The notes beneath the pieces are model-generated. The model did not search any database, was not told where the DNA came from, and was given only the letters and a program-made list of their open reading frames with translations. A DNA stretch of 64,000 bases. Origin: an uncultured Spirochaetia bacterium. Its GTDB lineage: Bacteria > Spirochaetota > UBA4802 > UBA5368. The stretch is from NCBI GenBank assembly GCA_937877025.1, contig CALEGE010000009.1, positions 2,039-66,038 of the forward strand. Reading direction: 5' to 3'. A program made the position numbers and the translations under genes. Of the stretch, positions 5,447-60,671 are shown piece after piece; within the stretch, counting starts at the first letter, position 1, and every line of letters begins with the position of its first letter.

Positions 5447-5719
5447 ATGGCAAAGCCGATAGTTTCAATAATGATCGCGTTTGCGGTACTGCTGATTGTC
5501 GTCGCAGGCGCGGCCTTTCAAAAACAGAATAAATGCCGCCGTACGGTGGAAAACGGCGCGTATGGGAAAACGCCGATGCTTGTTCAATTCTACCCGGGAA
5601 TGCCGTCTTTTAACGGGACGCCGGGCTATTCGGGTACGCCCCCGTATTTTGGCTCGCCGCAGTACAACGCTACGCCGTCATACAACGGTACGCTACAGTA
5701 TGATACCCCGTCGTATTAA
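5447..5719 (+). CDS. Small exported or membrane-anchored protein with Tyr-Gly-Thr-Pro hexapeptide repeats
   Basis: Purine-rich SD-like tract, N-terminal hydrophobic helix, then YPGMPS FNGTPG YSGTPP YFGSPQ YNATPS YNGTLQ YDTPSY. Confidence 0.7.
   Translation: MAKPIVSIMIAFAVLLIVVAGAAFQKQNKCRRTVENGAYGKTPMLVQFYPGMPSFNGTPGYSGTPPYFGSPQYNATPSYNGTLQYDTPSY
5591..5716 (+). repeat. Seven degenerate 18-nt coding tandem repeats
   Basis: Aromatic codon every sixth codon; units such as TACAACGCTACGCCGTCA and TACAACGGTACGCTACAG. Confidence 0.75.
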
Positions 5720-5774
5720 TGCCGCTGCTCGTTCGGCGGCGGCGAAGGTGAACGAAATCTTCAGGGGCCGTCCG

Positions 5775-7451
5775 ATGGTGGCCTTTTTGCTATTTCTGGC
5801 GGTGCCGCTTGTACGATTCAGCTTGATACCTGCGTTCAGTATGACGCGGTATGCGTTATGCGTAATCGTGAGCGTTTCTCTGGCCGCGTATCTCATCGCA
5901 TCGATGCGCGCCGGCCGGCCGGAGTTTTCCGTTACGGCTATCGACGCGCTGTTTTTCATGATGTATGTCGTATATCTGCTCTCATGCGTTTTTTCCCGCA
6001 ATGTATATGTTTCGTTTGCCGAAGCGATGCAGGAGCTTGTGTATCCGCTCGCATATATCCTTCTCAGGATGCTTGTCTCAGGCGAAAAGACCGGTATTAT
6101 ATTTATGTCCGCGGCGGCGTTTTGCATTACCATATCCGCTGTCGTCATGTCTGCCTGGGGGCTCGCGCAGTACTTTCTCGAATTTGACGTGCCGTCGGGT
6201 ATGAAAGCGCTTTTTAAAACGTATCATTTTCCCGTCGTTGCGTCGATGGGAAATCCCAACTTTTTGGCGGAATATCTCGTGCTTGCGCTTCCGGCGGCGG
6301 TTTCATGGATGGCATGGCGCGGCAGGTACGGCGCACTGCGCATTATCGTGGTTTTGGTCGGGTTGACGGTATATCTGACATATTCCAGACTTGCGTGGTT
6401 TGCCCTTGCCGTATGCATGATTGCCATAATCGCCGCCGCTCCGTGGAAAAAACGGCTGAAGATCGGCGGTTCTTTTCTGCTGCTGATATGTGTCACCGGC
6501 GCGTTTTTTGCCCATCATTATACGTCGGGTTCCACGAAATCGGAAAGAATCATAAGAAGCTTCGATATGTCCGATGCCGCGCCGTTGTTCGAGCGGCGCG
6601 TGATATACAGATCAGCGCTTGCCATGGTTGAGGACGCAGGCATATTCGGGATGGGGCCCGGCATGTTTGGCTACAGGTATCTTGCGTACCAGGGAGACTA
6701 TATCCGGGCAAACAACAACAAGTCGTCGCGCCATCATTGCGTGGACCTCGATCATGCGCATAACGATTATATGGAAATTGTCGTTGATTCGGGATACCTC
6801 GCGGTTGCGCTGTACATTGCGTTGATCATTGCCGCGGGCGCTGCGGGTCTGCGGGCCGTTCGCAAAGGAAAAACGGACGAGCCGCTTTTTTATATGTATA
6901 TTTCACCGCTTCTTTTCGCGTTATTCTCATGCTGGTCGTTCCCGTTCTACCTTCCGAACAGTAAGATGCTGCTTGTGCTCGCCCTGGCGCTCGCGGCCGG
7001 GCACTCTGCCGTACTGAAACCCATACGGGTATCGGGACGAATCATACCAATTGCGCTTATTGTCGTGATTGTTGTCACGTGCTGTTATAGCACGAGAAAC
7101 GCGGTGTCGATATACCACTATAATCGAGGCTTGCGCTATTTCAGGTCAGATTTCGACAGGGCGTCGTTGCATTTTGCGCGAGGTATACAGGCATATCCTT
7201 TTAACGGCTACAACTATCTGTCCATGGGAGCGCTGCTGCTGAACCAAAAAAAGAGCATGGGATTGCGGTATCTGCGGGAATCGCTGCGGTATATGGACAA
7301 TTCTACGATATATCTCAATATCGCGCGAGGGTATCGCGAACACGGACGCATCGAACTCGCGAAGGCGTGGTACAAAAAGCTTGTCGATATGCGCCCCGAT
7401 ATCCGCCGGGCGTACTGGGAATACAGAGAAATTATTGACAGGGGGCGATGA
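5775..7451 (+). CDS. O-antigen ligase / O-oligosaccharyltransferase family (Wzy_C) membrane protein with C-terminal TPR-like region
   Basis: Many TM helices, GNPNFLAEYL, TYSRLAW, GMGPGMF, HAHNDYME. Start chosen at ATG 5775; the frame is open upstream to 5496. Confidence 0.85.
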   Translation: MVAFLLFLAVPLVRFSLIPAFSMTRYALCVIVSVSLAAYLIASMRAGRPEFSVTAIDALFFMMYVVYLLSCVFSRNVYVSFAEAMQELVYPLAYILLRMLVSGEKTGIIFMSAAAFCITISAVVMSAWGLAQYFLEFDVPSGMKALFKTYHFPVVASMGNPNFLAEYLVLALPAAVSWMAWRGRYGALRIIVVLVGLTVYLTYSRLAWFALAVCMIAIIAAAPWKKRLKIGGSFLLLICVTGAFFAHHYTSGSTKSERIIRSFDMSDAAPLFERRVIYRSALAMVEDAGIFGMGPGMFGYRYLAYQGDYIRANNNKSSRHHCVDLDHAHNDYMEIVVDSGYLAVALYIALIIAAGAAGLRAVRKGKTDEPLFYMYISPLLFALFSCWSFPFYLPNSKMLLVLALALAAGHSAVLKPIRVSGRIIPIALIVVIVVTCCYSTRNAVSIYHYNRGLRYFRSDFDRASLHFARGIQAYPFNGYNYLSMGALLLNQKKSMGLRYLRESLRYMDNSTIYLNIARGYREHGRIELAKAWYKKLVDMRPDIRRAYWEYREIIDRGR

Positions 7452-8154: not shown

Positions 8155-8544
8155 TTATGCGGAGAATTTTTCCGCTATTGTGGCGTGCAGCATTTTCGCG
8201 TTGGTATAAAACTTCTCCGCCTCTTCCCGTGTGGCGACCGCGTCCCGTACGGATTCCACACTGTCTCGGCAGGTTTTCGCTTCGCGTAAAATGCCGATTA
8301 TATCGACTCCCGTCCATCCCGCCGGTTCATAGTACGATTCCACAAGCTCAAGTATGCGGTCATGATCGTCCGAATCGCTGCCGTTTTGAATGAGAAGGAC
8401 GCGGACCGAATAGAACATGGAAAGATACGAACACAGAACCGAGTCGTTGTACATCCCCTTTTCGAGCATAATCGCCGCAAGCTCGAGCTTCTCCCTGCTC
8501 TGGGAGAGCCTGAAATTTATTTTGTTTTCGATTTCGTTTTCCAT
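8155..8544 (-). CDS. HEPN domain protein, orphan and degenerate
   Basis: Matches the HEPN pattern A.imLekG.Y..sv..sYlsmFysvrvLL...g....dH and ends EEAEKFYTNAK. Start chosen at ATG 8544. Confidence 0.7.
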   Translation of the reverse strand: MENEIENKINFRLSQSREKLELAAIMLEKGMYNDSVLCSYLSMFYSVRVLLIQNGSDSDDHDRILELVESYYEPAGWTGVDIIGILREAKTCRDSVESVRDAVATREEAEKFYTNAKMLHATIAEKFSA

Positions 8545-8773
8545 TATACATGCTCGTCCCGACTGTGCGTTCACCCGGACCTGCGTGGTATCGGCATGCA
8601 TGTGCGATATGCCGAAATTAGCCGCCGAGCATGAATAAGGATTACATGCGCGGCATGGTATAACTTCAAGCATTTTTTTGGAATATGCGGCGGTAAAAAA
8701 TTGGTTTACGCAACCACGCGATTATGATACGCATGCCCCAATTATCAAAATGGACGGTTTTTGTGGGCGGAAA

Positions 8774-9003
8774 ATGGCATCGCGGATAATAGGGCTTCTC
8801 ACGGATTTCGGTGCGAGCGATGCGTAGCGGTATCGGCGGGATGCGTCGACGGGCGGCTGCTGTGCGCCGCATATGCGGAACTGGGGGCCGGTGATGCGGG
8901 CGTTATCAATGGAAGCGAGGGACTTGTCGAGTTTGCGATGAACATGGTGTCGTGTGCGCGGACATATTCGATGGAGATAGATGATCCAGCGAGGATAGGA
9001 TAG
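8774..9003 (+). pseudogene. Remnant of a SAM-dependent chlorinase/fluorinase / SAM hydroxide adenosyltransferase (DUF62) gene
   Basis: N-terminal MASRIIGLLTDFGASDA* is joined in another frame to the C-terminal AYAELGAGDAGVINGSEGLVEFAMN...DDPARIG*. The middle of the gene is missing. Confidence 0.7.
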
Positions 9004-9004
9004 A

Positions 9005-10240
9005 ATGAGTAATAAGGGAATTGGAAAAATTGCGATACTTGTCGGCGACGGCATGGCGGATTATCCCATCGCGTCTCTGGGCGGCAGAACGCCCCTCGAT
9101 GTTGCGCAAACGCCGAATATGGATTATCTCGCGAAACACGGCGTGCTCGGCCTTGCGCGCACTGTGCCGACAGGACTTGCGCCAGGGAGCGATACTGCGA
9201 ATCTTTCGATTTTCGGCTACGATCCGGCGCTCAACTATACGGGAAGGGCGCCGCTCGAGGCGCTGAATATGGGTATCGACATGAAGCCGAACGACGTGGC
9301 CTTCAGGTGCAATCTGGTGACGATCGGGGACGACGGTGCGATGTCGGATTTCAGCGCCAACCATATCGACTCGGCGTTTTCGCGTATTGTTATAGACGAG
9401 TTTCAGAAGAAAATAACGCGGCCCGGGATCGAGTTTTTTCCGGGTGTTTCGTACCGCCACATTATGATCTGGCGGGAGTATCCGTACGACGATCTTCCCG
9501 ACACCACGCCGCCGCACGACATTCAGGGTGAAGCGGCATCAGGCTATTATCCTTGCGGAACCGGCTCGTCGGTGCTTGCCGAAATAATGGACCTTTCGAA
9601 AAAAGTGATTGCGGACTCGGCGGCGATACGCGACGCGCGTTCCCGGTATCAGGGCGCGCCGGTTTCCGCGTGGCTGTGGGGCGCGGGCCGCAAGCCGACG
9701 ATGAAAACGTTGAACGAGCGCTTTGGCCTGTACGGCCATACTATATCCGCGGTTGACCTCATCCACGGCATCGGCCGTGCGGCGGGTCTGACGCCACTGT
9801 GCGTCGAAGGCGCTACCGGGTATCTCGATACCAACTATACGGGCAAGGCCGACGCGCTCCTTTGCGCGCTCGATGACGCGAATTTCGTGTTTCTGCATGT
9901 TGAATCGCCCGATGAATCGGGCCACGAGGGGAATATTGCGCATAAAATACAGGCAATCGAGGATTTCGACGAAAAGGTCGTCGGCAGAGTCATGAAGGGG
10001 CTGAAAAAATTCGATGATGTCACGTTGCTCGTTATGCCCGATCACCCCACGCCGATTGCGCTGCGTACGCATGCGTCGGATCCCGTGCCGTTCTGCATTT
10101 TCAGGGAAAAGGGCTTTGCCGCGCGCGGATATCGCGGCGAAGGTGTGACCGGCTTCAACGAGGTTTCCGCGTCGGGAACGGGCATTCATATTGAAGAGGC
10201 GCACAGGCTTATTGAAATTATGAGAGAGGGCGGATTGTAA
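9005..10240 (+). CDS. apgM: Cofactor-independent phosphoglycerate mutase, ApgM type
   Basis: GDGMAD, PGSDTAN, HVESPDESGHEG, PDHPTP, THASDPVPF. Confidence 0.92.
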   Translation: MSNKGIGKIAILVGDGMADYPIASLGGRTPLDVAQTPNMDYLAKHGVLGLARTVPTGLAPGSDTANLSIFGYDPALNYTGRAPLEALNMGIDMKPNDVAFRCNLVTIGDDGAMSDFSANHIDSAFSRIVIDEFQKKITRPGIEFFPGVSYRHIMIWREYPYDDLPDTTPPHDIQGEAASGYYPCGTGSSVLAEIMDLSKKVIADSAAIRDARSRYQGAPVSAWLWGAGRKPTMKTLNERFGLYGHTISAVDLIHGIGRAAGLTPLCVEGATGYLDTNYTGKADALLCALDDANFVFLHVESPDESGHEGNIAHKIQAIEDFDEKVVGRVMKGLKKFDDVTLLVMPDHPTPIALRTHASDPVPFCIFREKGFAARGYRGEGVTGFNEVSASGTGIHIEEAHRLIEIMREGGL

Positions 10241-42342: not shown

Positions 42343-43295
42343 ATGCCGAATAATGAATACTTTAAATGGGCGGAGAGCCTTTTTGCATCGGGAAATCTGA
42401 ACGCGAAGCCAGAGGCGCTCAAGGATGTTACGGTTGTAGAACTGTGCACGCTCATCCTTGGGCCGTCCGTTTCCTCGCTTCTGGCCGAGTTTGGCGCCAC
42501 GGTCTTCAAGGTGGAACTTCCCGGCCTGGGCGACACGATGCGCTCGATTACGCCATTTTACAAATTTTACAGGGGGCAGGCGATCTCCTACATGAAGGAG
42601 GCGCGCACGCCGCGTTTGCGCTCCTCGGCGCGCTGCATTATCGCACACTCACGGGGAAGGGGCAGTATATCGACGTATCGCCGGCGGAGGCGTTCGGGAG
42701 ATGCATCAACTATGGGCTTACCTATTTCGACGAATTCGGCGAAACCATTCCGCGAGTGGGCAACTTCGACGTGGGCGTGTTTCCGTACACGTATTTTAAA
42801 TGCAGCGACGGCTATACGTTTATTGCCGCGTTTTCCGAGTCGAACTTCAAGGCGATGTGCGCGATGATAGACCGGCCCGACCTGCGTGACAGGTTTTTGT
42901 CTGAAAGATCGCGTGTCAACCTTGAGAACATGAAATACATTTACCACGAAATCGAGAAATGGACGATGGAGCACACCTTCGATGAAATTTCTGCGGCCAT
43001 TGTCGATTACAACAAAAACGTGGGCAAGGGCGTCGTTGTGCCGGGCCGCATATGTTCGCCCGCCGATACGCTGAAGGAGCCGAACTGGTGGGAGCGGATG
43101 GCGTTTGAAAAAATAGACGATCCGGTGTACGACGAGTTGATAATAACAAACCAGGCGTGGAAGATGACGGAAACACCGCCGCGCGTAAAATGGGTGTGCA
43201 GGCCCGTGGGAGCCGACAACGAGAAAATATACAGCGAACAACTGGGATACTCGGTCGCGGATGTGCTCTCGCTAAAAGAAAGCGGCGTTATTTGA
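42343..43295 (+). pseudogene. CaiB/BaiF family III CoA-transferase with internal deletion and frameshift
   Basis: Frame 1 (ALKDVTVVEL...LGP...FGATVFKVE...GDTMR...EAR) ends near 42606. Another frame resumes at 42600 (GAHAAFALLGAL...TGKGQYIDVS...PY..F.C.DG). Confidence 0.85.
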
Positions 43296-44825: not shown

Positions 44826-47054
44826 CTATTGTGTCAGCTCAATTCCGCGTATGCGGATTGCCGCTCTTTCCGCCAGGGCCGTATCGATAGTGGCCGTGAG
44901 GATATTTCTGCTTTCGTGATGCCACGATGTAACCGGCAGCGACGCTGTTACCTCATCGAAATCACGGACGCAGAAAATCCGAACGACAAAGCGCCGCGGC
45001 TCGATGATTCTCCCCTCAAGATGCTCTATGCGGATCGTCATGTCGCTGCCGTTGTGTTCACACGATACGCCGGTGAGCGAAAACTCTCCCTTGCGGCAGC
45101 CGGTCCCTTCGCCGTAATCGTCGTACAGCCTGTATGTGCACGGTTGTCCTGGAAATATATTGAGATAAATTTTTGTAAAATACACGCGCTCCGGTATGTG
45201 CATCATTACATCGACCGTCGGTATAATGGAGCCGTCCCGTATAAACAGGGGGATGTCGCCGCTGCGCCATGGACGCGCGTCGATGCGGCGGTCGCCCTCG
45301 ATCTTTCGCAGCGTGCGGGGGTGACGCCAGTTGCCTGCGGGAAGGTACAGCGTTGCCTCGCTCCCATATAGCGGGCAGATCATAATTTCGCGTCCAAGCA
45401 TAAATTGCGAACCTGTCACGGCCGCCGCCGGGTCTTCCGGATACTCAAGTACGAGCGGGCGGACGATCGGCGTGCCGTCGGCGCTCGCGCGGTATGCGCA
45501 CGAATAATAATGCGGCAGCAGCCGATAGCGCAGTTTTACATACGAGCGGAAGAGCGTCTCATGTGCGGCACCGTAATGCCACGGGTCGCGCGTATGATCG
45601 AACGGCGACGAGAAATGCCGCGCAACGGGTGAAAAAATCGCGTACTGCATGTACCGCCGGTGCATAGCGGGCGACACGCGTCCCGACAGGCCGTAAAGAT
45701 CGGCCGTCCAGTACGCGAAGCCAATTATGCTCATTGAGAGGCCGGCGTAGAGCGAGCGGGCTATGCCGCGTTCGCACGCCTTCTGGTCGCCGAGGAACAC
45801 CGCGGGGTATCGCTGCGAGCCGGCCCATACGCACCGCGCGTAGCATATCCCCCGCTGGCCCGTGAAGGTTTCGTTGTTTTCGTGCACCGCTTTACCGTAA
45901 TAGAAACCGTAGAGATTTCTGTATTCGGGCGTACTCAGCCCCGCGGCGCTTGTTACGCCGTCCGATGGGAGGTATTCGCCGTCGTCGTTTTTAAAAAAGC
46001 GTATGCCGGCGGCAAGCAGCCTGTTTGTCAGCCGGTTCCAGAACGCGACGGCGTCGGGTGAGGTAAAATCGATCATGCCGCCGCGTCCAAACCACCACGG
46101 CGCGTTGTCGTGCGCGTATGCGCTGTGGGATTTGCCTTCCGCGTACAGACTGTGATCGGCGAACTTCGTCAGTTGCGACATCCCCACGGGGAAGTTTGGC
46201 CCGGCGATAAGGCGCGCAAAGAGCCTGAAGATGAGGTTTTCGCCGCTGTTGACGAACGGGGTGGTAATGAGGCCGAGTGTGACGCCCTCGCGTTTCGCCG
46301 ATTCTATAAATCGTTCTGGCTCGGGGAACAGCCGGGGATTCCACTGGAAATTATGGAAGCGCTCCTCCCAGTGGTAGTCGAGTATCACGGTGTCGAGGGG
46401 GATATGCCGCTTTCGGAATTCCCGTATAAAATCGAGCGTGGCGTTCTGGTCGACGGCGGGATATGATGTATTCCACAGGCCGAACGCCCATTTTGGGAAC
46501 AGCGGCGGCCTGCCGGAAATCCTCGTGTAACGCTCGATGACCGCGCCGATGCTGCCATCGAAGAAAAGCATGTCGAACCTTCGCATACCGCGCACGCGCA
46601 CTCCGTCGCTGGAAAACGAAAACCGTAACGGCCCCGCGTCGAGGATGAACATCCCCCATCCCGTGCTGCTGATGACAAACGGAATGTTGGAATAGCTGGC
46701 CCACCGCTGGATGATGTGCGGGGAGTCCCGGTTTTCTATGCAATACCGTCCCCCCGTAATAGGGAATTTCCGAAAGTTCATTCCCGTCCCGTAGAATACC
46801 TGCCGCTCCGGCGTGCGCACAACGACTTTGAAGCCCTTCCGCCGGCGTTTCGCGCGAATGGATATTTCGCAGGCATGCAACTGCAGTTTGATGTCTGTGT
46901 CTTTAGATGTGTGCGCGTCGCTGTATGGATGGTTTGTCAGTCCGGGGAACACGTCGTTCAGAAACGGGGGGTCAGAGCCTCCGATAAACACCCGCGTGCA
47001 GAGGTTGTAGAAGGTTCGTATGGTGACTTCGGGAGCGTCGTTGTTCACTGGCAT
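44826..47054 (-). CDS. Glycoside hydrolase family 31 (alpha-xylosidase/glucosidase-like)
   Basis: GRPPLFPKWAFGLW, ILDYHW, FFKNDDGE (nucleophile), GSQRYP, ADLYG, LRYRLLP, LPAGNW. Confidence 0.92.
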   Translation of the reverse strand: MPVNNDAPEVTIRTFYNLCTRVFIGGSDPPFLNDVFPGLTNHPYSDAHTSKDTDIKLQLHACEISIRAKRRRKGFKVVVRTPERQVFYGTGMNFRKFPITGGRYCIENRDSPHIIQRWASYSNIPFVISSTGWGMFILDAGPLRFSFSSDGVRVRGMRRFDMLFFDGSIGAVIERYTRISGRPPLFPKWAFGLWNTSYPAVDQNATLDFIREFRKRHIPLDTVILDYHWEERFHNFQWNPRLFPEPERFIESAKREGVTLGLITTPFVNSGENLIFRLFARLIAGPNFPVGMSQLTKFADHSLYAEGKSHSAYAHDNAPWWFGRGGMIDFTSPDAVAFWNRLTNRLLAAGIRFFKNDDGEYLPSDGVTSAAGLSTPEYRNLYGFYYGKAVHENNETFTGQRGICYARCVWAGSQRYPAVFLGDQKACERGIARSLYAGLSMSIIGFAYWTADLYGLSGRVSPAMHRRYMQYAIFSPVARHFSSPFDHTRDPWHYGAAHETLFRSYVKLRYRLLPHYYSCAYRASADGTPIVRPLVLEYPEDPAAAVTGSQFMLGREIMICPLYGSEATLYLPAGNWRHPRTLRKIEGDRRIDARPWRSGDIPLFIRDGSIIPTVDVMMHIPERVYFTKIYLNIFPGQPCTYRLYDDYGEGTGCRKGEFSLTGVSCEHNGSDMTIRIEHLEGRIIEPRRFVVRIFCVRDFDEVTASLPVTSWHHESRNILTATIDTALAERAAIRIRGIELTQ

Positions 47055-47373
47055 TACCCCGAATTGTGATTTTCCGCCGAGCCTGGTGCGGACATATCAT
47101 TCTCGCTAATGAAGTGAATGATATATCATGCGGTTTTGTAATTCAAACACAAATTATTGTGCTGGCGAAAATAACCGCCCGCCGCAGCCCCTGTAAAAAA
47201 GGCGCGCCGGATGAAAAATTTTGGAAACCGCCCGCGTGTGGTAAATTGTATCACTGGAAAAAAATTTTCTTGCGAATATACCGCAACAGTGGAAGCATAC
47301 AGCCTATGCGAGGAAAACGCATGTGGCGTATGATCGATATCCCTTGCCGGGCGGCGGCATATTTGGATGATAC

Positions 47374-48099
47374 ATGAAACCAAAGCTACAAATAGAAATA
47401 TTGCCGCAGCCGAATGACACGACCTGCGGGCCGACAAGCCTGCATGCTGTATACCGCTATTACGGTGAGCGCATATCCCTTGAAAAGGTGATTTCCGAGG
47501 TGAAAAGTCTCGATGAAGGCGGCACCATGGCCGTGTTGCTTGCCTGCCATGCCCTCGGACGCGGCTACAAGGCTACAATTTACACCTATAATCTGCAGAT
47601 ATTCGACCCGACATGGTTTGTTCCGAAGGGGCCAGATATACGGGAGCGCCTTGCCCTTCGGCTGCAATACACGGATGCGCCAAAAATGAAAATCGCGATC
47701 CGTGCGTATCTGGAGTTTTACAGGCTTGGCGGAACGGTGCGTTTTGAAGATTTGCGTACGGGGCTGTTGAGGAAATATCTCAGCAGGTCTGTGCCGATTC
47801 TCACGGGATTAAGCTCGACGTATCTCTACAGGTGTCCGCGCGAATACGGCCCCCATGATGTCGAAGACGACGTGAGGGGCGATCCCCAGGGCCACTTTGT
47901 CGTTCTCTGCGGCTATAATAAAAAAGAAAAAAAAGTACTCGTGGCTGATCCGTATCAGCCGAATCCGATATCCGGAAAAAATTATTACGATGTCGAAATT
48001 AACAGGCTGTTGAATTCGATACTGCTCGGCATTGTCACATACGACGCGAATCTGTTGATAATTGAACCGAGTGAAAAACGTTTAACACACAGGAAATAG
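47374..48099 (+). CDS. Peptidase C39-like papain-fold protein
   Basis: QPNDTTCGPTSL (Cys), GHFVV (His), VADP (Asp). No ABC transporter domain. Confidence 0.85.
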   Translation: MKPKLQIEILPQPNDTTCGPTSLHAVYRYYGERISLEKVISEVKSLDEGGTMAVLLACHALGRGYKATIYTYNLQIFDPTWFVPKGPDIRERLALRLQYTDAPKMKIAIRAYLEFYRLGGTVRFEDLRTGLLRKYLSRSVPILTGLSSTYLYRCPREYGPHDVEDDVRGDPQGHFVVLCGYNKKEKKVLVADPYQPNPISGKNYYDVEINRLLNSILLGIVTYDANLLIIEPSEKRLTHRK

Positions 48100-48104
48100 C
48101 ATCC

Positions 48105-49574
48105 ATGCCAATACTTATTGTCGTTAATTATCCCAAGCGGTGGAAGTTCGATATCACCGGCGTCGATGTCGTATCGGCGAAGGATTATCTTACCAATCAC
48201 GATTACAGCGATATGCGCGGCGTCAAGGTGTTCAATCTCTGCCGGTCGTACCGCTACCAGAGCCTCGGGTACTATGTATCGCTGCTTGCCGCCGCGCGCG
48301 GCCACAAGGCCATACCCAGTGTTACCACCATACAGGAGATGAAGTCGCAGGAGGTGATACGTATCATCACTGAGGACCTCGACGATCTCATCCAGAAAAG
48401 CCTCTCGCACATCCAGTCGAACGAGTTTACGCTCAGCATCTATTTTGGAAAGAACATCGCGCGCCACTACGACCGGCTGTGCCTGCAGCTTTTCAATTTG
48501 TTCCAGGCGCCGATGTTGCGCGCGCACTTCGTCTATAACAAAAAGTGGCAGCTCCAGAACATCGGACCCATTCCCAATAGCGAAATCCCCGAAGAGCATA
48601 TGCCCTACGTGGAGGAGTTTGCGAAAAAATATTTCGCGAACCGGCGTTTCAGCGTTCCCAGGAGGGACGTCTCCGGCTACGACCTCGCGATTCTTTACAA
48701 TCCCAACGAGAAAGAGCCGCCATCGAGCGTTAAAACGATCAATCACATGGTCAAGATCGCCGAGAAAATGGATTTTAACGTCGAGTTAATTACCAAGGAT
48801 GATTACAGCAAGATCGCCGAGTTCGACGCGCTGTTTATCAGGGAAACGACGGCGGTCAATCATCACACCTACCGTTTCGCGCTCAGGGCCGAGGCCGAAG
48901 GAGTTGTCGCGATCGACGATTCTCGTTCGATCGTCAGGTGCACCAACAAGGTCTATCTCGCCGAATTGCTCGACCATCACGGGGTGCCGATACCGAAGAC
49001 GGTGATTCTGCACAGGGACAACAGGGACGCAGTCATCAACGATCTCGGTTTCCCCTGCGTGTTGAAACAGCCGGATTCCTCGTTTTCGCAGGGTGTCGTA
49101 AAGGCGAACAATATCGACGAATTTATCGAGGAGTCGGACAAACTGCTGGACAAATCGGAGCTGATCATTGCGCAGCAGTTTCAGCCGACTGCGTTCGACT
49201 GGCGCGTGGGCATCCTCGACCGGCAGCCCCTTTTTGTCTGCAAGTATTATATGGCCGACAACCACTGGCAGATAATCAACTGGCAGAAAAAGGGGATGCG
49301 CAAATACGGCATGTCGGAAACCATCGCGGTTGAGAATGCGCCCGAAAAGGTGGTAAAGACCGCGCTTCGCGCCGCGAACCTTATCGGCGACGGCCTGTAC
49401 GGCGTCGATTTAAAACAGGTCGGCGCGAAGTGTTATGTCATCGAGATCAATGACAATCCCAACATCGATGTCGGCATTGAAGACAAGGCGATCGGGGATG
49501 AGCTGTACCGCAGGACAATAAACGTATTCCACAAGCGTATACATAGCATTAAAGAAGGAAATTCCAAAAAATGA
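48105..49574 (+). CDS. RimK-family ATP-grasp ligase with N-terminal RLAN domain
   Basis: RLAN motif VFNLCRSYRYQSLGYYVSLLAAARGH; CTNKVY, PCVLKQPDSSFSQGV, DWRVGIL, GLYGVDLK, IEINDNP. Confidence 0.92.
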   Translation: MPILIVVNYPKRWKFDITGVDVVSAKDYLTNHDYSDMRGVKVFNLCRSYRYQSLGYYVSLLAAARGHKAIPSVTTIQEMKSQEVIRIITEDLDDLIQKSLSHIQSNEFTLSIYFGKNIARHYDRLCLQLFNLFQAPMLRAHFVYNKKWQLQNIGPIPNSEIPEEHMPYVEEFAKKYFANRRFSVPRRDVSGYDLAILYNPNEKEPPSSVKTINHMVKIAEKMDFNVELITKDDYSKIAEFDALFIRETTAVNHHTYRFALRAEAEGVVAIDDSRSIVRCTNKVYLAELLDHHGVPIPKTVILHRDNRDAVINDLGFPCVLKQPDSSFSQGVVKANNIDEFIEESDKLLDKSELIIAQQFQPTAFDWRVGILDRQPLFVCKYYMADNHWQIINWQKKGMRKYGMSETIAVENAPEKVVKTALRAANLIGDGLYGVDLKQVGAKCYVIEINDNPNIDVGIEDKAIGDELYRRTINVFHKRIHSIKEGNSKK

Positions 49575-50803
49575 ATTTCCACACCCTCCATCTGTTCGAG
49601 GGGTACGGCATCGAGCTCGAGTACATGATAGTGAAGAGCGACACCCTCGACGTGTATCCTGCCGCCGACATGCTGCTCGACGCGCTGGACGAAGCGAATG
49701 CGGGCGACGACATGCTGTCCTGGTCGAACGAACTCGTGCTTCATGTGATAGAGCTGAAAACCGGCGGCGCCGTGCCGTCGCTGGAGATGTTGCCGGCGGC
49801 GTTTGGCCGCAGCGTGCGGCGCATAAATGAAATATTGCAACCGCGTGGCGGAAGGCTGATGCCGACGGCGATGCATCCGTGGATGGACCCGTTGAAGGAA
49901 ACGCGGCTTTGGCCCCACGGCAGCGGGGAAGTCTACCAGGCGTTCAATAAAATATTCGATTGCCGGGGCCACGGCTGGGCGAACATTCAGAGCATGCACA
50001 TTAACCTCCCGTTTAACGGCGACGACGAATTCAGGCGGCTGCATGCGGCGGTACGGCTGGCGCTGCCGTTGATACCGGCGATTGCGGCGAGCTCGCCGCT
50101 GGTCGAAGGCCGTGTATCGGCGTTTAAAGATGCGCGGCTCGATTTCTACAGAAATAACCAGCGCCGCATTCCGTCGATTACCGGCATGATTATACCGGAG
50201 CCCGTCTTTACCCGCGACGAATACGAGCAAGTGATCAACCAGAAAATATACGCGGATATCGCGCCGCACGATCCCGATGGCATTTTGCGGGAGGAATGGC
50301 TCAATTCGCGCGGCGCGATCGCCCGTTTTACCCGCAACGCGATTGAAATCAGGATCATCGACATGCAGGAATGCCCGGAAGCTGATATGATCGTCGCCGC
50401 CGCGGTCATTGCTCTGATACGTGCGCTGGCCGACGAGCGGTGGATATCGTGTGAAGAACAGGCGCAATGGGATACGGCCGATCTCGCTGCGGTGCTTTCG
50501 TCGACCATCCTTGACGCCGAAAATGCCGTTATTCGAAACACAAACTACCCCGCGGCCTTCGGCATGCCGCCCGCGGAATGCGCCGCCGGCGATCTGTGGC
50601 GGCATATCGCCGGCCGCCTCTCGTCATGGCAGGCGGACTCTGCGTATTTCCCTGGCGGATTTGATGAAATGCTGCGGCGCGGCACGCTGTCCCGCCGCAT
50701 ACTTGGGGCGCTCGGCGGCCGGCCCGACCCGGAGCGGGTCCGCGCGGTGTACGCCGAGCTCTGTGACTGTCTCGACGAAGGGCGTTTTTTCCGCGGCCTG
50801 TAA
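49571..50803 (+). CDS. Glutamate--cysteine ligase family 2 (GCS2 / COOH-NH2 ligase)
   Basis: YGIELEY, NELVLHVIELKT, PTAMHP, NIQSMHINL, AASSP, IEIRIID. Overlaps the upstream stop (ATGA). Confidence 0.88.
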   Translation: MNFHTLHLFEGYGIELEYMIVKSDTLDVYPAADMLLDALDEANAGDDMLSWSNELVLHVIELKTGGAVPSLEMLPAAFGRSVRRINEILQPRGGRLMPTAMHPWMDPLKETRLWPHGSGEVYQAFNKIFDCRGHGWANIQSMHINLPFNGDDEFRRLHAAVRLALPLIPAIAASSPLVEGRVSAFKDARLDFYRNNQRRIPSITGMIIPEPVFTRDEYEQVINQKIYADIAPHDPDGILREEWLNSRGAIARFTRNAIEIRIIDMQECPEADMIVAAAVIALIRALADERWISCEEQAQWDTADLAAVLSSTILDAENAVIRNTNYPAAFGMPPAECAAGDLWRHIAGRLSSWQADSAYFPGGFDEMLRRGTLSRRILGALGGRPDPERVRAVYAELCDCLDEGRFFRGL

Positions 50804-50879
50804 TGGTGGTTGACATGCATCGTATATGACTGCATAACGCTTCCATTGCCGTGCAACGATTATGAACTGGAGATTGACA

Positions 50880-51500
50880 ATGACACCGCTTGCGCTTACC
50901 GCGATAACGAATTTCATGCTTGCCTGCGAGGTGTTTTTTTTCGCGGGATTATTGTTCGGCGGAAGGAGTGACATCTTTTCGGCGTATGGCTTCTGGGCGC
51001 TGTCGCAGTTTTTTCTTGGCGTGTCCGCGCTGATCGGCGGCGTGGATCACGGATTTTTCGAGCCAATGGGCCGGGATCATCCCGCGCGGGTTGTGTTCCA
51101 GAAATTGACCTGGTCGGCGATGGGACTGATGACATTCTGCATCCTCATGACGCTGACACTGCAATTTCTCCCGCAGCGGTATCACACCATCGTCGCCGTT
51201 GCCGGCATCCTTCAACTGGCTGTCTATTGCGTCTTGATGCTGAAAACCGACAAGTTTCTCACCGTGATACTCAATTACCTGCCGGTTGTATTGCTTTTTT
51301 TTATACTCAATGTCGCCGGTCTTGGCAGCGGTACAGGCAACTGGTGGTTCATAGCCGGTTTTCTTATATCGTTTGCGGCCTCCGTGTTGCAGATGATGAA
51401 GGTCAATATATTCGATCCTCTGAACTGGAATGGGCTCTACCATGTGATGATGATGGCTGCGGTTGTTTTTCTGTATTACGGGGGATTGTATTTGCAGTAA
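50880..51500 (+). CDS. Polytopic membrane protein (DUF6962-like) with conserved His residues
   Basis: About 7 TM helices, GGVDHGFF, NWNGLYHV. Confidence 0.7.
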   Translation: MTPLALTAITNFMLACEVFFFAGLLFGGRSDIFSAYGFWALSQFFLGVSALIGGVDHGFFEPMGRDHPARVVFQKLTWSAMGLMTFCILMTLTLQFLPQRYHTIVAVAGILQLAVYCVLMLKTDKFLTVILNYLPVVLLFFILNVAGLGSGTGNWWFIAGFLISFAASVLQMMKVNIFDPLNWNGLYHVMMMAAVVFLYYGGLYLQ

Positions 51501-51624
51501 GCGCTGAAATTGGTGTGCAGCAATTGATGTACGGTATGCATTTTTCCTTATAGATATTATATTTAATACATGCGGAATTGAGCATAATGCAGAAAAAGGA
51601 TGTATTGTAACGGGGGGATGCGCA

Positions 51625-52217
51625 ATGGCGACTCGCGGCGCGTACGGCGTGAAAATAGACGGCAAATACCGGTTGAATTATCACCACTTCGATTCGTTTC
51701 CCGAATATCTCGGCAGGGATATATGCAGCCTGATCGCGGAGATAAACCGTGACGGTGGATGGGACGTCTTTACGACGAATTTCAGAAAAGTGGCGCTGGT
51801 ATATCCTGGCGATACCGCCCCCGACGAGCTCGTGCAACGATACAAACATCCCAACGAGGAGGATGACGGAAAAGGGGTCGCCGAATGGTACAACCTTTTA
51901 CGCGGGTTTCAGGGCGCGCGTCTTTTACGGGGGATTTACAAAGGTGTACACCCCTGTAATATTCAAAAACCATTTCTTCGCACTTTCCGGAGGCGTCGGA
52001 TTTTATTCGGGATTCGTACTGTGAATACGCGTACGCCATCAATTGCGACGAAATGGTTTTTGAATATTACAGGGGTGGACAGACCTCGCCCCAGCCCGGC
52101 AATCCCTTCGGTATTACCCCCAACGCCGACGGCTATTATCCATGCAGGCTTGTCGTAAAAATTCCTCTTGCCGACATTGACGAAAACACATTTATGGAAC
52201 TGATCGACAGGGGCTGA
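51625..52217 (+). pseudogene. Frameshifted hypothetical gene of a phage-associated MxTRG...YxHxDxYP-type family
   Basis: N-terminal MATRGAYG...YHHFDSFPEYLG. The family-like C-terminus (PEASDFIRDSYCEYAYAINCD...YYPCRLV...IDRG*) is in the -1 frame from about 51960 to 52217. Confidence 0.65.
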
Positions 52218-57113: not shown

Positions 57114-58259
57114 ATGGGTAAACGAGTCGCACTATGCGCTGTGGCGCAAATTAAAAACGAGGGCGACCTCTGGCATGCTCGTTTTCAAAACATGCTCGTC
57201 GGATGCTTTGAATCGATTGTGCAGCAGACCGGGATTACCTTCGACATGGATAACGGCATACGGAACATCATTACCTGTTCCGATGACGTGTTCGATGCGC
57301 GTACAATCTCCGACAACGGCGTGACAGATGTCGTGGGCGCGCAATTCAGGGGCGAGGAAAAAATGGCGCAGGAAAGCATCAACGGCCTCGGCTACGCGAT
57401 GGCATGTATTCTGTCTGGGCATGATGATGTTATTCTGTACATGGGCCATTGCAAGGAATCGCAGGGCGAGAGCCGCGGGATGATAACCAACCTCGCATTC
57501 GATCCGTTCTATTGCAGGCCGCTCGGCCTTGATTTTATGAACGTGAACGCGCTGCAGGCGAGGGAGTACATGCAAAAATCGGGCCTGACCGACGGACACC
57601 TCGCGAAGGTTGTTGTGCGCTCGCGAAAGAACGCCAGAAAAAACCCATTTGCCCGCGACACGAAGGACGTGAGCGAGAACGATGTGATGCAATCGCCGTT
57701 TCTGGCCGACCCGATACGCGAACTGCATTATTACCCCGTTACCGACTGGGCGTACGGCATGCTGCTGTGTTGCGAGGAGCGGGTAAAGGAATTTACCGAC
57801 AGACCGGTGTGGATTACCGGCTACGGTTCGTGCATGGATTCGTACTTCCCCGGCGACAGGGACCTTACATCGAATTTCTCTCTGAAAAACGCGACAGCGC
57901 GCGCCTGCGAAAAAGCTGGCATAAAAAATATCCGAAAAAATATCGGCCTTTTCGAGCTCTGCGATCACGCGGCATATCAGCTTCCCATGTGGGCCGAAGG
58001 CGTCGGTATTGCGGCCGAGGCGAAAGGCGGCGCATGGATCGACAGCGGCGGCATGGACGAGTTCAATGTGAACCTTTCGGGCGGGCAGTTGAACGGGAAT
58101 CCCCTGCTTCTCGGCGGCGCGGCGAGAGCTATCGATTGTTTTTATCAGCTCCGCGGCGAAGCGGGAGGCCGGCAGGTGAAAGGCGTACAGCGCGCCCTCG
58201 CGCACGGCACCTATGGTGCGGCCGGACAGCACCAGGGTGTTGTCATAATGGAAGTATAG
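57114..58259 (+). CDS. Thiolase-fold (SCP-x type) protein, Ltp4-like
   Basis: DPFYCRPL, ALQAR, PFLADPIR, NLSGGQLNGNP, ALAHGTYG. No thiolase Cys or GHP motif. Confidence 0.85.
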   Translation: MGKRVALCAVAQIKNEGDLWHARFQNMLVGCFESIVQQTGITFDMDNGIRNIITCSDDVFDARTISDNGVTDVVGAQFRGEEKMAQESINGLGYAMACILSGHDDVILYMGHCKESQGESRGMITNLAFDPFYCRPLGLDFMNVNALQAREYMQKSGLTDGHLAKVVVRSRKNARKNPFARDTKDVSENDVMQSPFLADPIRELHYYPVTDWAYGMLLCCEERVKEFTDRPVWITGYGSCMDSYFPGDRDLTSNFSLKNATARACEKAGIKNIRKNIGLFELCDHAAYQLPMWAEGVGIAAEAKGGAWIDSGGMDEFNVNLSGGQLNGNPLLLGGAARAIDCFYQLRGEAGGRQVKGVQRALAHGTYGAAGQHQGVVIMEV

Positions 58260-58271
58260 GGAGGCGTATTC

Positions 58272-59471
58272 ATGACACACAGAAAAAAGAACAGGAATGT
58301 CGGCATTATCGGAATAGGCCAGACGAAGTATTCGAGCCACAGGGAAGATGTGAACCAGCCTGAAATGATACATGAAGCGGTTGAAGCGGCGCTCAAAGAC
58401 GCCGGCATCACGATGAAGGATGTCGACTGCGTTGTTCACGGAAACATGGAGCTCTTCGAGATGATACACCAGCCGGACCTTTGGCATACGATCGGCACAG
58501 GGGCGTGCGGCAAGGATTGCATCCGCATTACCACGGGCGGCACCGTCGGTGCGACGATATCGTGCGCGGCCGACAACCTTATTGCGTCGGGCATGTACGA
58601 TATCGTGATGGCGATAGGTTTTGAAAAACTGCAGGAAGGCCATACCACGGGCGGTATCACCAACATGGCCGACGCCCTCTGGTTTCGAAATTTACAGACC
58701 GGCGCGCTTACCGGGTCGAAGGCGTACGATGTTATACGCGAATTCGGGGAAGAGCGGGCGAAGCGGGTATCGATGAAGTACCGTATCATCATGGATAAGC
58801 ACGCGATGCGCAATCCGAAGGCGCACAGGGCCTTCGGCCTCGAATTTGAACAGATGGATAACCTCATTAAAACATCCCCGAAGCTTGTCGGCGACCTGAA
58901 GCTTATAGAGATGTGCTCGCAGTCGGACGGCGCGTGCGTGGTGATCTACGCCTGCGAAAAAAAAGCGAAACAACTTTCGAAAAACCCCGTGTGGATCCGC
59001 GACCACATTACCGTGCATCGCGAAGAGGTGTTCGTTATGTTCGGGTACGACGAAAAATACCCGTTCCCGATGACTCACAGGTTCGCGGCGGAACAGTTGT
59101 ACAAACGCAACGGTATTGACAGCCCGGTCGAATACTTCGACGTGTTCGAAATGTACGATCCCGCGTCATGGTGGGCGGTCGACTGGATTCGCGATTTCTT
59201 CCAGCTTAAAGGCGACGAGCATCTGAAGCTTGTTGAAAACGAGGAGATCATGATCGGCGGGAAGATGCCCATTAATCCGTCGGGCGGCGTTATTGCGTCG
59301 AATCCCATCGGTGCGACCGCGCTTGTGCGCATCGCCGAGGCGGCGCTGCAGATTCGGGGGGATGCGGGCGATCACCAGATCCCGACACCGGTAAGCCACG
59401 CCCTTGCGTCGGGATTCGGCGGAACCATGTGGACGGTGCTTACGATGCTTGAAAAGGAACTCAACTGGTAA
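58272..59471 (+). CDS. Thiolase-fold (SCP-x type) protein, Ltp3-like
   Basis: GIGQTKY, IRITTGGTVGAT, SDGAC, EMYDP, NPSGGVIASNPIGAT. Confidence 0.88.
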   Translation: MTHRKKNRNVGIIGIGQTKYSSHREDVNQPEMIHEAVEAALKDAGITMKDVDCVVHGNMELFEMIHQPDLWHTIGTGACGKDCIRITTGGTVGATISCAADNLIASGMYDIVMAIGFEKLQEGHTTGGITNMADALWFRNLQTGALTGSKAYDVIREFGEERAKRVSMKYRIIMDKHAMRNPKAHRAFGLEFEQMDNLIKTSPKLVGDLKLIEMCSQSDGACVVIYACEKKAKQLSKNPVWIRDHITVHREEVFVMFGYDEKYPFPMTHRFAAEQLYKRNGIDSPVEYFDVFEMYDPASWWAVDWIRDFFQLKGDEHLKLVENEEIMIGGKMPINPSGGVIASNPIGATALVRIAEAALQIRGDAGDHQIPTPVSHALASGFGGTMWTVLTMLEKELNW

Positions 59472-59483
59472 GGGGGGAAGGCG

Positions 59484-60671
59484 ATGAGTGAATATTGGGG
59501 TATAAAGGTAGAGGATATTTTCAACACCATGCCGGAACGATTCCGCCCCGAGGGCGCGAAGGGCGTCAATGCCTGTTTCGGCTATGACATCAAGGGCGAG
59601 GGGAAATGGAAACTGACTGTGGCGAATGAAACCCTGAAGGTTGAAAAAACCGGCGACCTCACCGGGTGCGTATCGGTAATGCTGGCCGATGGCGAGACGT
59701 TTGTGGGCGTGAACACCGGCAAGGTTGACGGCGTGAGCGCCTTTACCTCGGGCAGGGTCACGGTAGAGGGCGATTTCAGCGCCTTTGGAAAAACCGCGAA
59801 GATGTTCAAAAAGTATGTAAACGGCAAAAAAGAGATGAGCACGCGTGACTATATCCTCGACATGTTCGGGACGCTGGTAAGCCGTTTTCAGCCGAACGCG
59901 ATACCGGGGCTTGACGCGAAGGTGTGCTACGACATCGGCGGAAATGACGGCGGTGTGTGGACGGCTATCATTAAGGAAGGAAAATGCGAGCTGGTGGAAG
60001 GAAAGGCCGACAGGCCGACAACGATCCTGCATGTTAACGAAGCGAAGGACTGGGTTGACGTGATGCTTGGTAAATCGGACCCGTTTACGCTGCTTTCCGC
60101 GGGCAGGGCGTCGATCGAGGGCGAAACACAGATTGCCCTGAAGTTAGGGGAAATCTTCGCGAAGTACAAATCGCCCATCCCCGAAGGCGAGCCCGAGCAG
60201 GAGCTTATCGCCCTGAAAAAGGTTATATCGGTCAACCAGCGGTTTGCCACAGGGCCCGTTATGGGAAAATTTCTCAACGCGCTCAAGGAAAAGAAAATTT
60301 ATACAAACAAGTGCCCGAAGTGCGGACGCATTCATCTTCCCGCGCGGGAGGTGTGCGCCGAATGCCGTGTGCGCGCCGACGAATGGCTGGAGGTAGGCCC
60401 CAAAGGGCAGGTGCGTTACATGGAATACGTCTATTACTCGAGCCCCGACCCGCTTACCGGCGAGACGCGCGAAACGCCGTACGGGATGGTGAACATTTTG
60501 CTTGATGGCTGCAAAGGCAACGATACCTTCGCCCACCTCATCCGCCGCGACCAGATCGACAAAATCAAAGGCGGTAACAACGAAGTAGCGGGCACGCGGG
60601 TACGGCCTGTGTGGAACGAGCACCGTGTTGGCAGCATATTCGATATCAAGTATTTCGAAATCGATGAGTAG
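59484..60671 (+). CDS. SCP2-SCP2-DUF35 (Zn-ribbon/OB-fold) fusion protein
   Basis: Two SCP2-like repeats (FRPEGAKGVNACFGYDI; FQPNAIPGLDAKVCYDI), then CPKC...CAEC and the OB fold PYGMVNILLDG. Confidence 0.85.
   Translation: MSEYWGIKVEDIFNTMPERFRPEGAKGVNACFGYDIKGEGKWKLTVANETLKVEKTGDLTGCVSVMLADGETFVGVNTGKVDGVSAFTSGRVTVEGDFSAFGKTAKMFKKYVNGKKEMSTRDYILDMFGTLVSRFQPNAIPGLDAKVCYDIGGNDGGVWTAIIKEGKCELVEGKADRPTTILHVNEAKDWVDVMLGKSDPFTLLSAGRASIEGETQIALKLGEIFAKYKSPIPEGEPEQELIALKKVISVNQRFATGPVMGKFLNALKEKKIYTNKCPKCGRIHLPAREVCAECRVRADEWLEVGPKGQVRYMEYVYYSSPDPLTGETRETPYGMVNILLDGCKGNDTFAHLIRRDQIDKIKGGNNEVAGTRVRPVWNEHRVGSIFDIKYFEIDE

Follow-up and report, generated by a model that had tools for sequence, protein, structure and literature searches.

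What do two mechanistically different amide-bond ligases and a papain-fold peptidase do when they are encoded side by side? This question is raised by three adjacent genes in a 64,000-nucleotide stretch (positions 2,039 to 66,038 of contig CALEGE010000009.1, hereafter the window) from an uncultured Spirochaetia bacterium. The genes encode a C39-like cysteine peptidase, a RimK-like ATP-grasp ligase that carries an RLAN domain, and a GCS2-family carboxylate-amine (COOH-NH2) ligase. A first-pass annotation had described them as an orphan operon and offered two ideas for their function: a reversible writer/eraser system for glutamyl-type protein tags, or a route to a gamma-glutamyl peptide. We find that the locus is almost certainly one member of a conserved cassette. 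The evidence leans modestly to the small-peptide reading over the protein writer/eraser, and we put at roughly 0.45 the probability that a small capped peptide containing glutamate is made by the ligase pair and trimmed or recycled by the peptidase.

The open reading frame (ORF) map and Pfam recovered the same three families in the tight arrangement that had been described, exact to the base. The sequence TAG-CATCC-ATG at 48097-48107 leaves a 5-bp gap between the peptidase and ATP-grasp genes, the ATP-grasp and GCS2 genes share an ATGA stop/start overlap at 49571-49574, and a purine-rich Shine-Dalgarno-like run lies 5' of each of the two junctions. Within the peptidase (Peptidase_C39_2, 6.9e-12; Peptidase_C39, 4.5e-07), the papain-type set Gln12/Cys18/His174/Asp192 is invariant in alignments of 27-50 homologues, which upholds the intact Cys-His-Asp triad noted earlier and adds the glutamine to it. 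The second protein joins RLAN directly to the N-terminal side of the RimK-like ATP-grasp unit in a single chain of ~490 residues. Across 26 aligned sequences from many phyla, ~100 of its columns are invariant, including ATP-grasp Lys, Glu, Asn and Asp positions, and the RLAN motif FNLCRSYRYQSxGYYVSLLAxARGH is equally unchanged. The GCS2 protein (Pfam 3.4e-28, residues 13-292 of 410) has ~65 invariant columns, among them the acidic, His and Arg residues typical of a glutamine-synthetase-like fold. Judged from their sequences, all three genes are genuine, are coupled in translation and keep intact catalytic sites.

Scanning one genome per species gave at least 573 species-level genomes that encode a protein related to the ATP-grasp ligase, and a broader protein search gathered at least 8000 clusters, all with generic names only ('RimK family protein', 'glutathione synthase'). 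We compared the best 80 of the at least 573 loci, which span more than 12 phyla at ATP-grasp identities of 55-72%. The peptidase gene lies directly upstream of the ATP-grasp gene on the same strand in 74 of these 80 loci, the GCS2 gene lies directly downstream on the same strand in 73, and the whole trio is collinear in 68, again over more than 12 phyla. Carriers range over Spirochaetota, Planctomycetota, Bacteroidota and Desulfobulbaceae, and cultured ones include Adhaeribacter aquaticus DSM 16391, Pontibacter, Rufibacter glacialis and Planctomicrobium piriforme. The genes are thus conserved together, and 'orphan' is the wrong word for them. A maximum-likelihood tree of 69 ATP-grasp proteins requires 16 phylum-label changes (minimum 11, shuffled mean 42.8) and places the window copy in a Spirochaetota clade with 95% support. 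The tree is largely phylum-coherent, which points to mostly vertical descent; because it follows phyla, the high identity between phyla reads as strong purifying selection and not as recent transfer.

The description as a three-gene operon holds for this copy, but the commoner form has a fourth gene. In 41 of the 80 loci, the gene next after GCS2 encodes a member of the FGase (N-formylglutamate amidohydrolase) family (PF05013, 2.6e-25). A match is present in 42 loci overall, the one in locus L079 lying ~4 kb beyond GCS2. Querying with five FGase homologues by tblastn gave no match within the 64-kb window. The three-gene form seen there recurs in 19 loci, and in 8 others the fourth position falls beyond the contig end. 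The rest carry the peptidase and ATP-grasp genes only (6 loci), the ATP-grasp and GCS2 genes only (5, all Fibrobacterota) or the ATP-grasp gene alone (1). Since the bare ligase pair persists in some Fibrobacterota, we take the ligases to be the core of the cassette and the hydrolases to be accessory. The fourth gene itself varies. FGase-type amidohydrolases carry a fused C-terminal HD phosphohydrolase domain in L032 (8705-9967) and a C-terminal NUDIX phosphohydrolase domain in L080 (8871-10130), fusions that may point to an intermediate or regulator that is phosphorylated or linked to a nucleotide. L065 encodes a long FGase protein of 417 residues (5478-6731), and in L066 an M28 peptidase gene (8331-9443) overlaps the FGase stop.

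Could the three genes nevertheless be chance neighbours, or decaying remnants without a joint function? The lack of an FGase gene in the window copy is the one observation that fits such a history. The frames are intact, the catalytic residues are all kept and the same order recurs in 68 of the 80 loci across phyla. In addition, many metagenomes from anaerobic sludge, fermenters and landfills contain the window stretch at 97-100% of sampled words, and so do three metatranscriptome assemblies, where contigs of up to 26 kb on both strands speak to presence and not to operon structure. We consider accidental adjacency practically negligible.

A second question is whether the cassette is a familiar pathway hidden behind generic names. 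We assessed orthology with curated NCBIfam models and their own cut-offs. The ATP-grasp protein scored 65.6 bits against a cut-off of 143.4 for the rimK_fam subfamily (TIGR00768), 27.0 against 331 for the S6-Glu ligase (PRK10446) and 31.3 against 408 for GshB (NF009110), and it gave no match to the Ngg model (TIGR03103, cut-off 569 bits). Scores for the GCS2 protein were 28.2 against 249 bits for gshA_cyano (TIGR02048), 40.9 against 409 for GshA (PRK13517) and 53.5 against 176.4 for YbdK (TIGR02050), while the peptidase reached 20.8 bits against the 150 demanded by the PA2778-type C39 peptidase model. Because no cassette protein attains the curated RimK, GshB, GshA or YbdK cut-offs, glutathione synthesis or S6 polyglutamylation as a plain identity is not supported by family membership, although either chemistry may still take place. 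The GCS2 protein is, by these comparisons, a distinct subfamily of GCS2, and the family profile detects the solved plant glutamate-cysteine ligase no better than at E = 0.12. The earlier view that the function is uncharacterised also stands, as a full-text literature search found no paper characterising the peptidase/RLAN-ATP-grasp/GCS2 trio. We know of no cassette member with an experimentally established product. An amidoligase survey by Iyer, Abhiman, Burroughs and Aravind (Mol Biosyst 2009) is said to be the source of the RLAN domain and to have flagged this neighbourhood. The cassette is therefore catalogued but biochemically uncharacterised, and the window copy is an ordinary FGase-less member rather than a new discovery.

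We then considered what the peptidase acts on. It can reasonably be predicted to be cytoplasmic, because it has no N-terminal hydrophobic stretch. Comparing its AlphaFold2 (AF2) model (pLDDT 81.1) with the PDB by Foldseek returned the C39 domains of PCAT1, ComA and LahT-type transporters, together with Alr0975 and the PeiR isopeptidase, at a modest level (E 1.6e-05 to 1e-04, TM 0.43-0.52). Processing of bacteriocins at a double-glycine leader is not supported as its role: the enzyme is a stand-alone protein of 241 residues, and neither the window nor the 80 loci provide an ABC transporter or a conserved precursor ORF. A dedicated search of the 80 loci for a conserved precursor or carrier ORF of 18-90 residues brought up only alternate-frame or antisense shadows of C39, FGase and ClpB. 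Likewise, no conserved transporter or other recurrent neighbour beyond the core was found among these loci, except for lineage-specific synteny. The first-pass annotation had found neither precursor nor transporter beside this copy, and the same is true of its relatives. ORFs of 103 residues in the upstream spacer, including a candidate precursor at 47066-47377 that overlaps the peptidase start, have no Pfam family and no counterpart kept in related loci, and the candidate was rejected on these grounds.

The Alr0975 (phytochelatin-synthase-like) structures matched by the peptidase model are of a glutathione acyl-enzyme (E ~5e-05), and they bring to mind a thiol pathway of the glutathione or phytochelatin type. 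GCS2 would form gamma-Glu-Cys, the ATP-grasp enzyme would add a third residue in the role of GshB, and the papain-like enzyme would act as a phytochelatin synthase or as an Alr0975-type glutathione hydrolase. The gamma-Glu-Cys ligases of plants, of cyanobacteria and of the EgtA type do belong to the GCS2 family, GshB has the ATP-grasp fold, and in one locus (L012) a gene for a pyridoxal-phosphate (PLP)-dependent enzyme (8724-9707) starts 4 bp after GCS2. However, the gshA, gshB and YbdK models are all far out of reach, the GCS2 profile barely detects solved glutamate-cysteine ligases, Pfam places the peptidase in the C39 families and not in the phytochelatin synthase family, and the structural matches of the peptidase are weak (TM 0.4-0.47). 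A thiol pathway is, in our estimation, improbable.

Turning to the RLAN-ATP-grasp ligase, its AF2 model (pLDDT 81.7) matched Ddl, RimK, ArgX and LysX with E-values of 1e-17 to 1e-15, over only the C-terminal ~300 residues. By sequence, the ATP-grasp core is nearest to RimK (E 3.7e-06 to 7.6e-06). The RLAN profile found no relative among solved structures in the PDB at E up to 10. An origin of RLAN as a degenerate ATP-grasp copy was also considered and is unsupported by sequence, with an hhalign probability of at most 6% against the ATP-grasp half.

A second architecture of RLAN proteins bears on how the ligases might work together. An exhaustive profile search of 1.84 billion representatives retrieved only 946 RLAN proteins. 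Fragments aside, the sole alternative architecture is a GNAT-RLAN-ATP-grasp fusion of 636-663 residues that stands alone, without a GCS2 or peptidase gene. The fused GNAT takes the slot of the separate GCS2 and both acylate an amine, which suggests that the two are alternative N-capping activities. A gene for a CitMHS carboxylate transporter adjoins the fusion gene in two unrelated contexts (L081-L083). The GNAT portion is most similar to RimI, although below the RimI cut-off and at a level generic for small GNATs. Ngg was rejected as an identity for the fusion, which scores at most 32.9 against 569 bits on TIGR03103. In L081, a SET-domain gene follows the fusion gene and polyamine biosynthesis genes lie on the opposite strand.

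These observations can be assembled into a model in which GCS2 and the ATP-grasp enzyme work one after the other on metabolites that are common in the cytoplasm. Such substrates are favoured because no substrate, carrier or export gene is linked to the cassette. In the first step, GCS2 would spend ATP to link the amino group of an amino acid or amine with a carboxylate, for which glutamate's gamma-carboxyl is the likeliest candidate, giving an N-capped intermediate. The RimK-like ATP-grasp enzyme, with RLAN as its putative substrate-recognition module, would then convert the free alpha-carboxylate of the intermediate into an acyl phosphate and attach a further residue, glutamate or some other amino acid, to yield a small capped peptide such as gamma-Glu-X-Glu. 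One such bond would be hydrolysed or transferred by the papain-fold enzyme, for turnover, size control or recycling, and in four-gene versions the FGase-type enzyme would remove a C-terminal N-acyl-glutamate unit. The FGase family (PF05013) is named after the hydrolysis of N-acyl-glutamate.

Precedents for this division of labour are found in several pathways. NAT8L and RIMKLA produce N-acetyl-Asp-Glu (NAAG), RIMKLB makes beta-citrylglutamate from citrate, Ngg makes N-acetyl-Gln-Gln, and GshA and GshB make glutathione, with GshB extending gamma-Glu-Cys. The tails of F420 and methanopterin are further examples of RimK-family small-molecule chemistry. To our knowledge, such chemistry is confined to carboxylates that have no amino group of their own or have it blocked. 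Because of this, and because GCS2 and the fused GNAT look like alternative caps, we favour the order in which GCS2 caps and the RLAN-ATP-grasp enzyme adds the C-terminal residue, probably Glu. The resemblance of the peptidase to the glutathione acyl-enzyme and the CitMHS neighbours of the sister form also count for a small peptide.

Several points weigh against a small peptide. By sequence, the peptidase is closest to C39 domains, which cleave ribosomal peptides, and the closest structural relatives of the ATP-grasp enzyme include RimK, LysX and ArgX, which modify proteins. Identity of 55-60% between phyla, combined with a near-invariant RLAN surface, might be expected if a conserved macromolecule were recognised. 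Glutamate as the carboxylate donor of GCS2 is only a family-level guess, given how far this ligase lies from characterised enzymes, and we infer both the reaction order and every substrate identity. Lastly, the neighbourhood hints (CitMHS, M28, PALP, SBF) are single or few cases.

The most direct competitor is reversible protein tagging, in which RLAN binds a conserved housekeeping protein whose gene lies elsewhere, the ligases write and the hydrolases erase. The ATP-grasp enzyme would add one or more C-terminal glutamates in the manner of RimK on S6, GCS2 would add or cap through a side-chain carboxylate, and the papain-like enzyme, with FGase where present, would remove the tag or expose the acceptor end. 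By sequence and fold the nearest relatives of the ATP-grasp protein (RimK, LysX and ArgX) are all protein-directed. The substrates of C39-type peptidases are peptides, and PeiR cleaves isopeptide bonds. Although descent is mostly vertical, RLAN varies extremely little between phyla, and in the sister form a RimI-like GNAT is fused to RLAN-ATP-grasp, with a SET-domain gene after one such gene. Set against this, no gene for a substrate, tag or carrier is linked in any of the 80 loci. In the known LysW, Pup and RimK-associated systems, the partners are usually encoded close by. The ATP-grasp protein also misses both curated RimK cut-offs, and the RimI-like match of the sister GNAT falls short of its cut-off and is of a kind shared by small GNATs. 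Tagging is therefore unlikely on present evidence, if still a serious contender. A specific version dispenses with any tag gene: RLAN docks a universal cytoplasmic protein, the ligases install a short glutamyl or gamma-glutamyl-capped tag at the C-terminus or on a side chain, and the papain-like enzyme, with or without FGase, erases it. We give this version slightly poorer odds again; if true, bacteria of over a dozen phyla would have a counterpart to tubulin glutamylation or pupylation.

The nearest solved structures to the ATP-grasp protein being RimK enzymes, a polymer is also conceivable. GCS2 would make a primer, the RimK-like enzyme would extend it processively to oligo- or poly-alpha-glutamate or another acidic polymer, and the peptidase would set its length. 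RimK itself makes poly-alpha-glutamate in vitro, and the RimK-RimB pair is a precedent for a length-controlling hydrolase partner. Yet no storage-granule or export genes are linked in the related loci and the accessory hydrolases are dispensable in several lineages, so we regard a polymer as very improbable. Both the polymer and the thiol pathway are variants of narrower scope.

Setting the favoured small capped peptide beside known systems shows what is shared and what is not. RimK, which with RimB carries out poly-alpha-glutamylation of S6 in E. coli and Pseudomonas, resembles the cassette in its ATP-grasp core and in the pairing of a ligase with a peptidase. In contrast to RimK, the cassette enzyme carries an RLAN module of ~180 residues; the cassette's hydrolytic partner is papain-fold where that on the RimB side is retropepsin-like, and the cassette adds a second ligase of the glutamine synthetase (GS) fold. 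With GshA and GshB, NAT8L and RIMKLA, and Ngg, the cassette shares the logic of an N-capping enzyme followed by an ATP-grasp enzyme that extends the free carboxylate, although none of these is orthologous to the cassette proteins. The glutathionylspermidine synthetase/amidase GspSA and Alr0975 offer a further parallel, in that a papain-superfamily cysteine enzyme and an ATP-dependent amide ligase meet around a gamma-glutamyl peptide. The amidase half of GspSA is a CHAP amidase, and the phytochelatin-synthase-like Alr0975 acts on glutathione. Unlike these enzymes, the cassette peptidase is C39-like by sequence, neither CHAP nor C83, and the cassette proteins are separate instead of fused. Once identified, the cassette product would be either a new widespread small peptide (an osmolyte, a redox or metal buffer, or a signal) or a new protein-tagging system. 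This class is an attractive experimental target. The window copy itself adds little beyond an FGase-less three-gene form in an anaerobic-digester spirochaete that is present in community RNA libraries.

Table 1. Coordinates of the cassette, its flanks and the sister-form genes. Positions are those of the window unless a locus is named.
Feature	Position	Strand	Length or residues	Basis or note
C39-like papain-fold cysteine peptidase gene	47374-48099	+	241 aa	ORF map, Pfam
Peptidase Gln12 codon	47407-47409	+		catalytic set
Peptidase Cys18 codon	47425-47427	+		catalytic set
Peptidase His174 codon	47893-47895	+		catalytic set
Peptidase Asp192 codon	47947-47949	+		catalytic set
RLAN + RimK-like ATP-grasp amide ligase gene	48105-49574	+	489 aa	ORF map, Pfam
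RLAN domain (PF14401)	48177-48611	+	aa 25-169	Pfam 1.5e-49
Pre-ATP-grasp region		+	~aa 190-280	
RimK-like ATP-grasp core	48945-49469	+	aa 281-455	Pfam 1.5e-08
GCS2-family carboxylate-amine (COOH-NH2) ligase gene	49571-50803	+	410 aa	ORF map, Pfam
Divergent intergenic region, GH31 gene to cassette	47055-47373	.	~320-bp spacer	ORF map, sequence
GH31 glycosidase gene, divergent from cassette	44826-47054	-		ORF map
DUF6962 membrane-protein gene	50862-51500			downstream of cassette
GNAT-RLAN-ATP-grasp gene, locus L081	5001-6992			
GNAT-RLAN-ATP-grasp gene, locus L082	3517-5457			
GNAT-RLAN-ATP-grasp gene, locus L085	3590-5500			

The divergent spacer presumably holds the cassette promoter; a consensus scan of this region picked up no sigma-70-like promoter on the + strand, and no riboswitch or leader RNA was matched by Rfam in the spacer, in the window or in 11 related loci. 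Downstream (50862-52158), the DUF6962 gene is followed by a 177-residue ORF without a family and then by a convergent gene for a RumA-like TRAM/U5-methyltransferase. As a missing transporter or a fourth cassette gene, the DUF6962 gene was dismissed, being present in none of the 80 related loci. L001, which is the closest locus and comes from Spirochaetota, has the RumA-like gene immediately after the cassette, so the DUF6962 gene and the 177-residue ORF look like a local insertion between the two. One RNA run shows a contig break and a change in depth at ~50860, just past the GCS2 stop, a hint of a boundary. Inside the 177-residue ORF, positions 51947-51978 differ from contigs of three metatranscriptome runs by a cluster of substitutions and of small deletions that together amount to 26 bases; the probable cause is variation between strains at a site that is under low constraint or does not code.

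Two further observations lie outside the cassette. A family III CoA-transferase at 42343-43295 appears split over two overlapping frames, the first of 174 residues and N-terminal-looking, the second of 309 residues and matching profile positions 166-366 only; possible explanations are a frameshift, a pseudogene and an error in the assembly. On the + strand at 57114-60671, inspection by eye of three consecutive genes suggested a thiolase-like pair and, after it, a zinc-ribbon/OB-fold (DUF35-like) protein whose N-terminus is SCP2-like.

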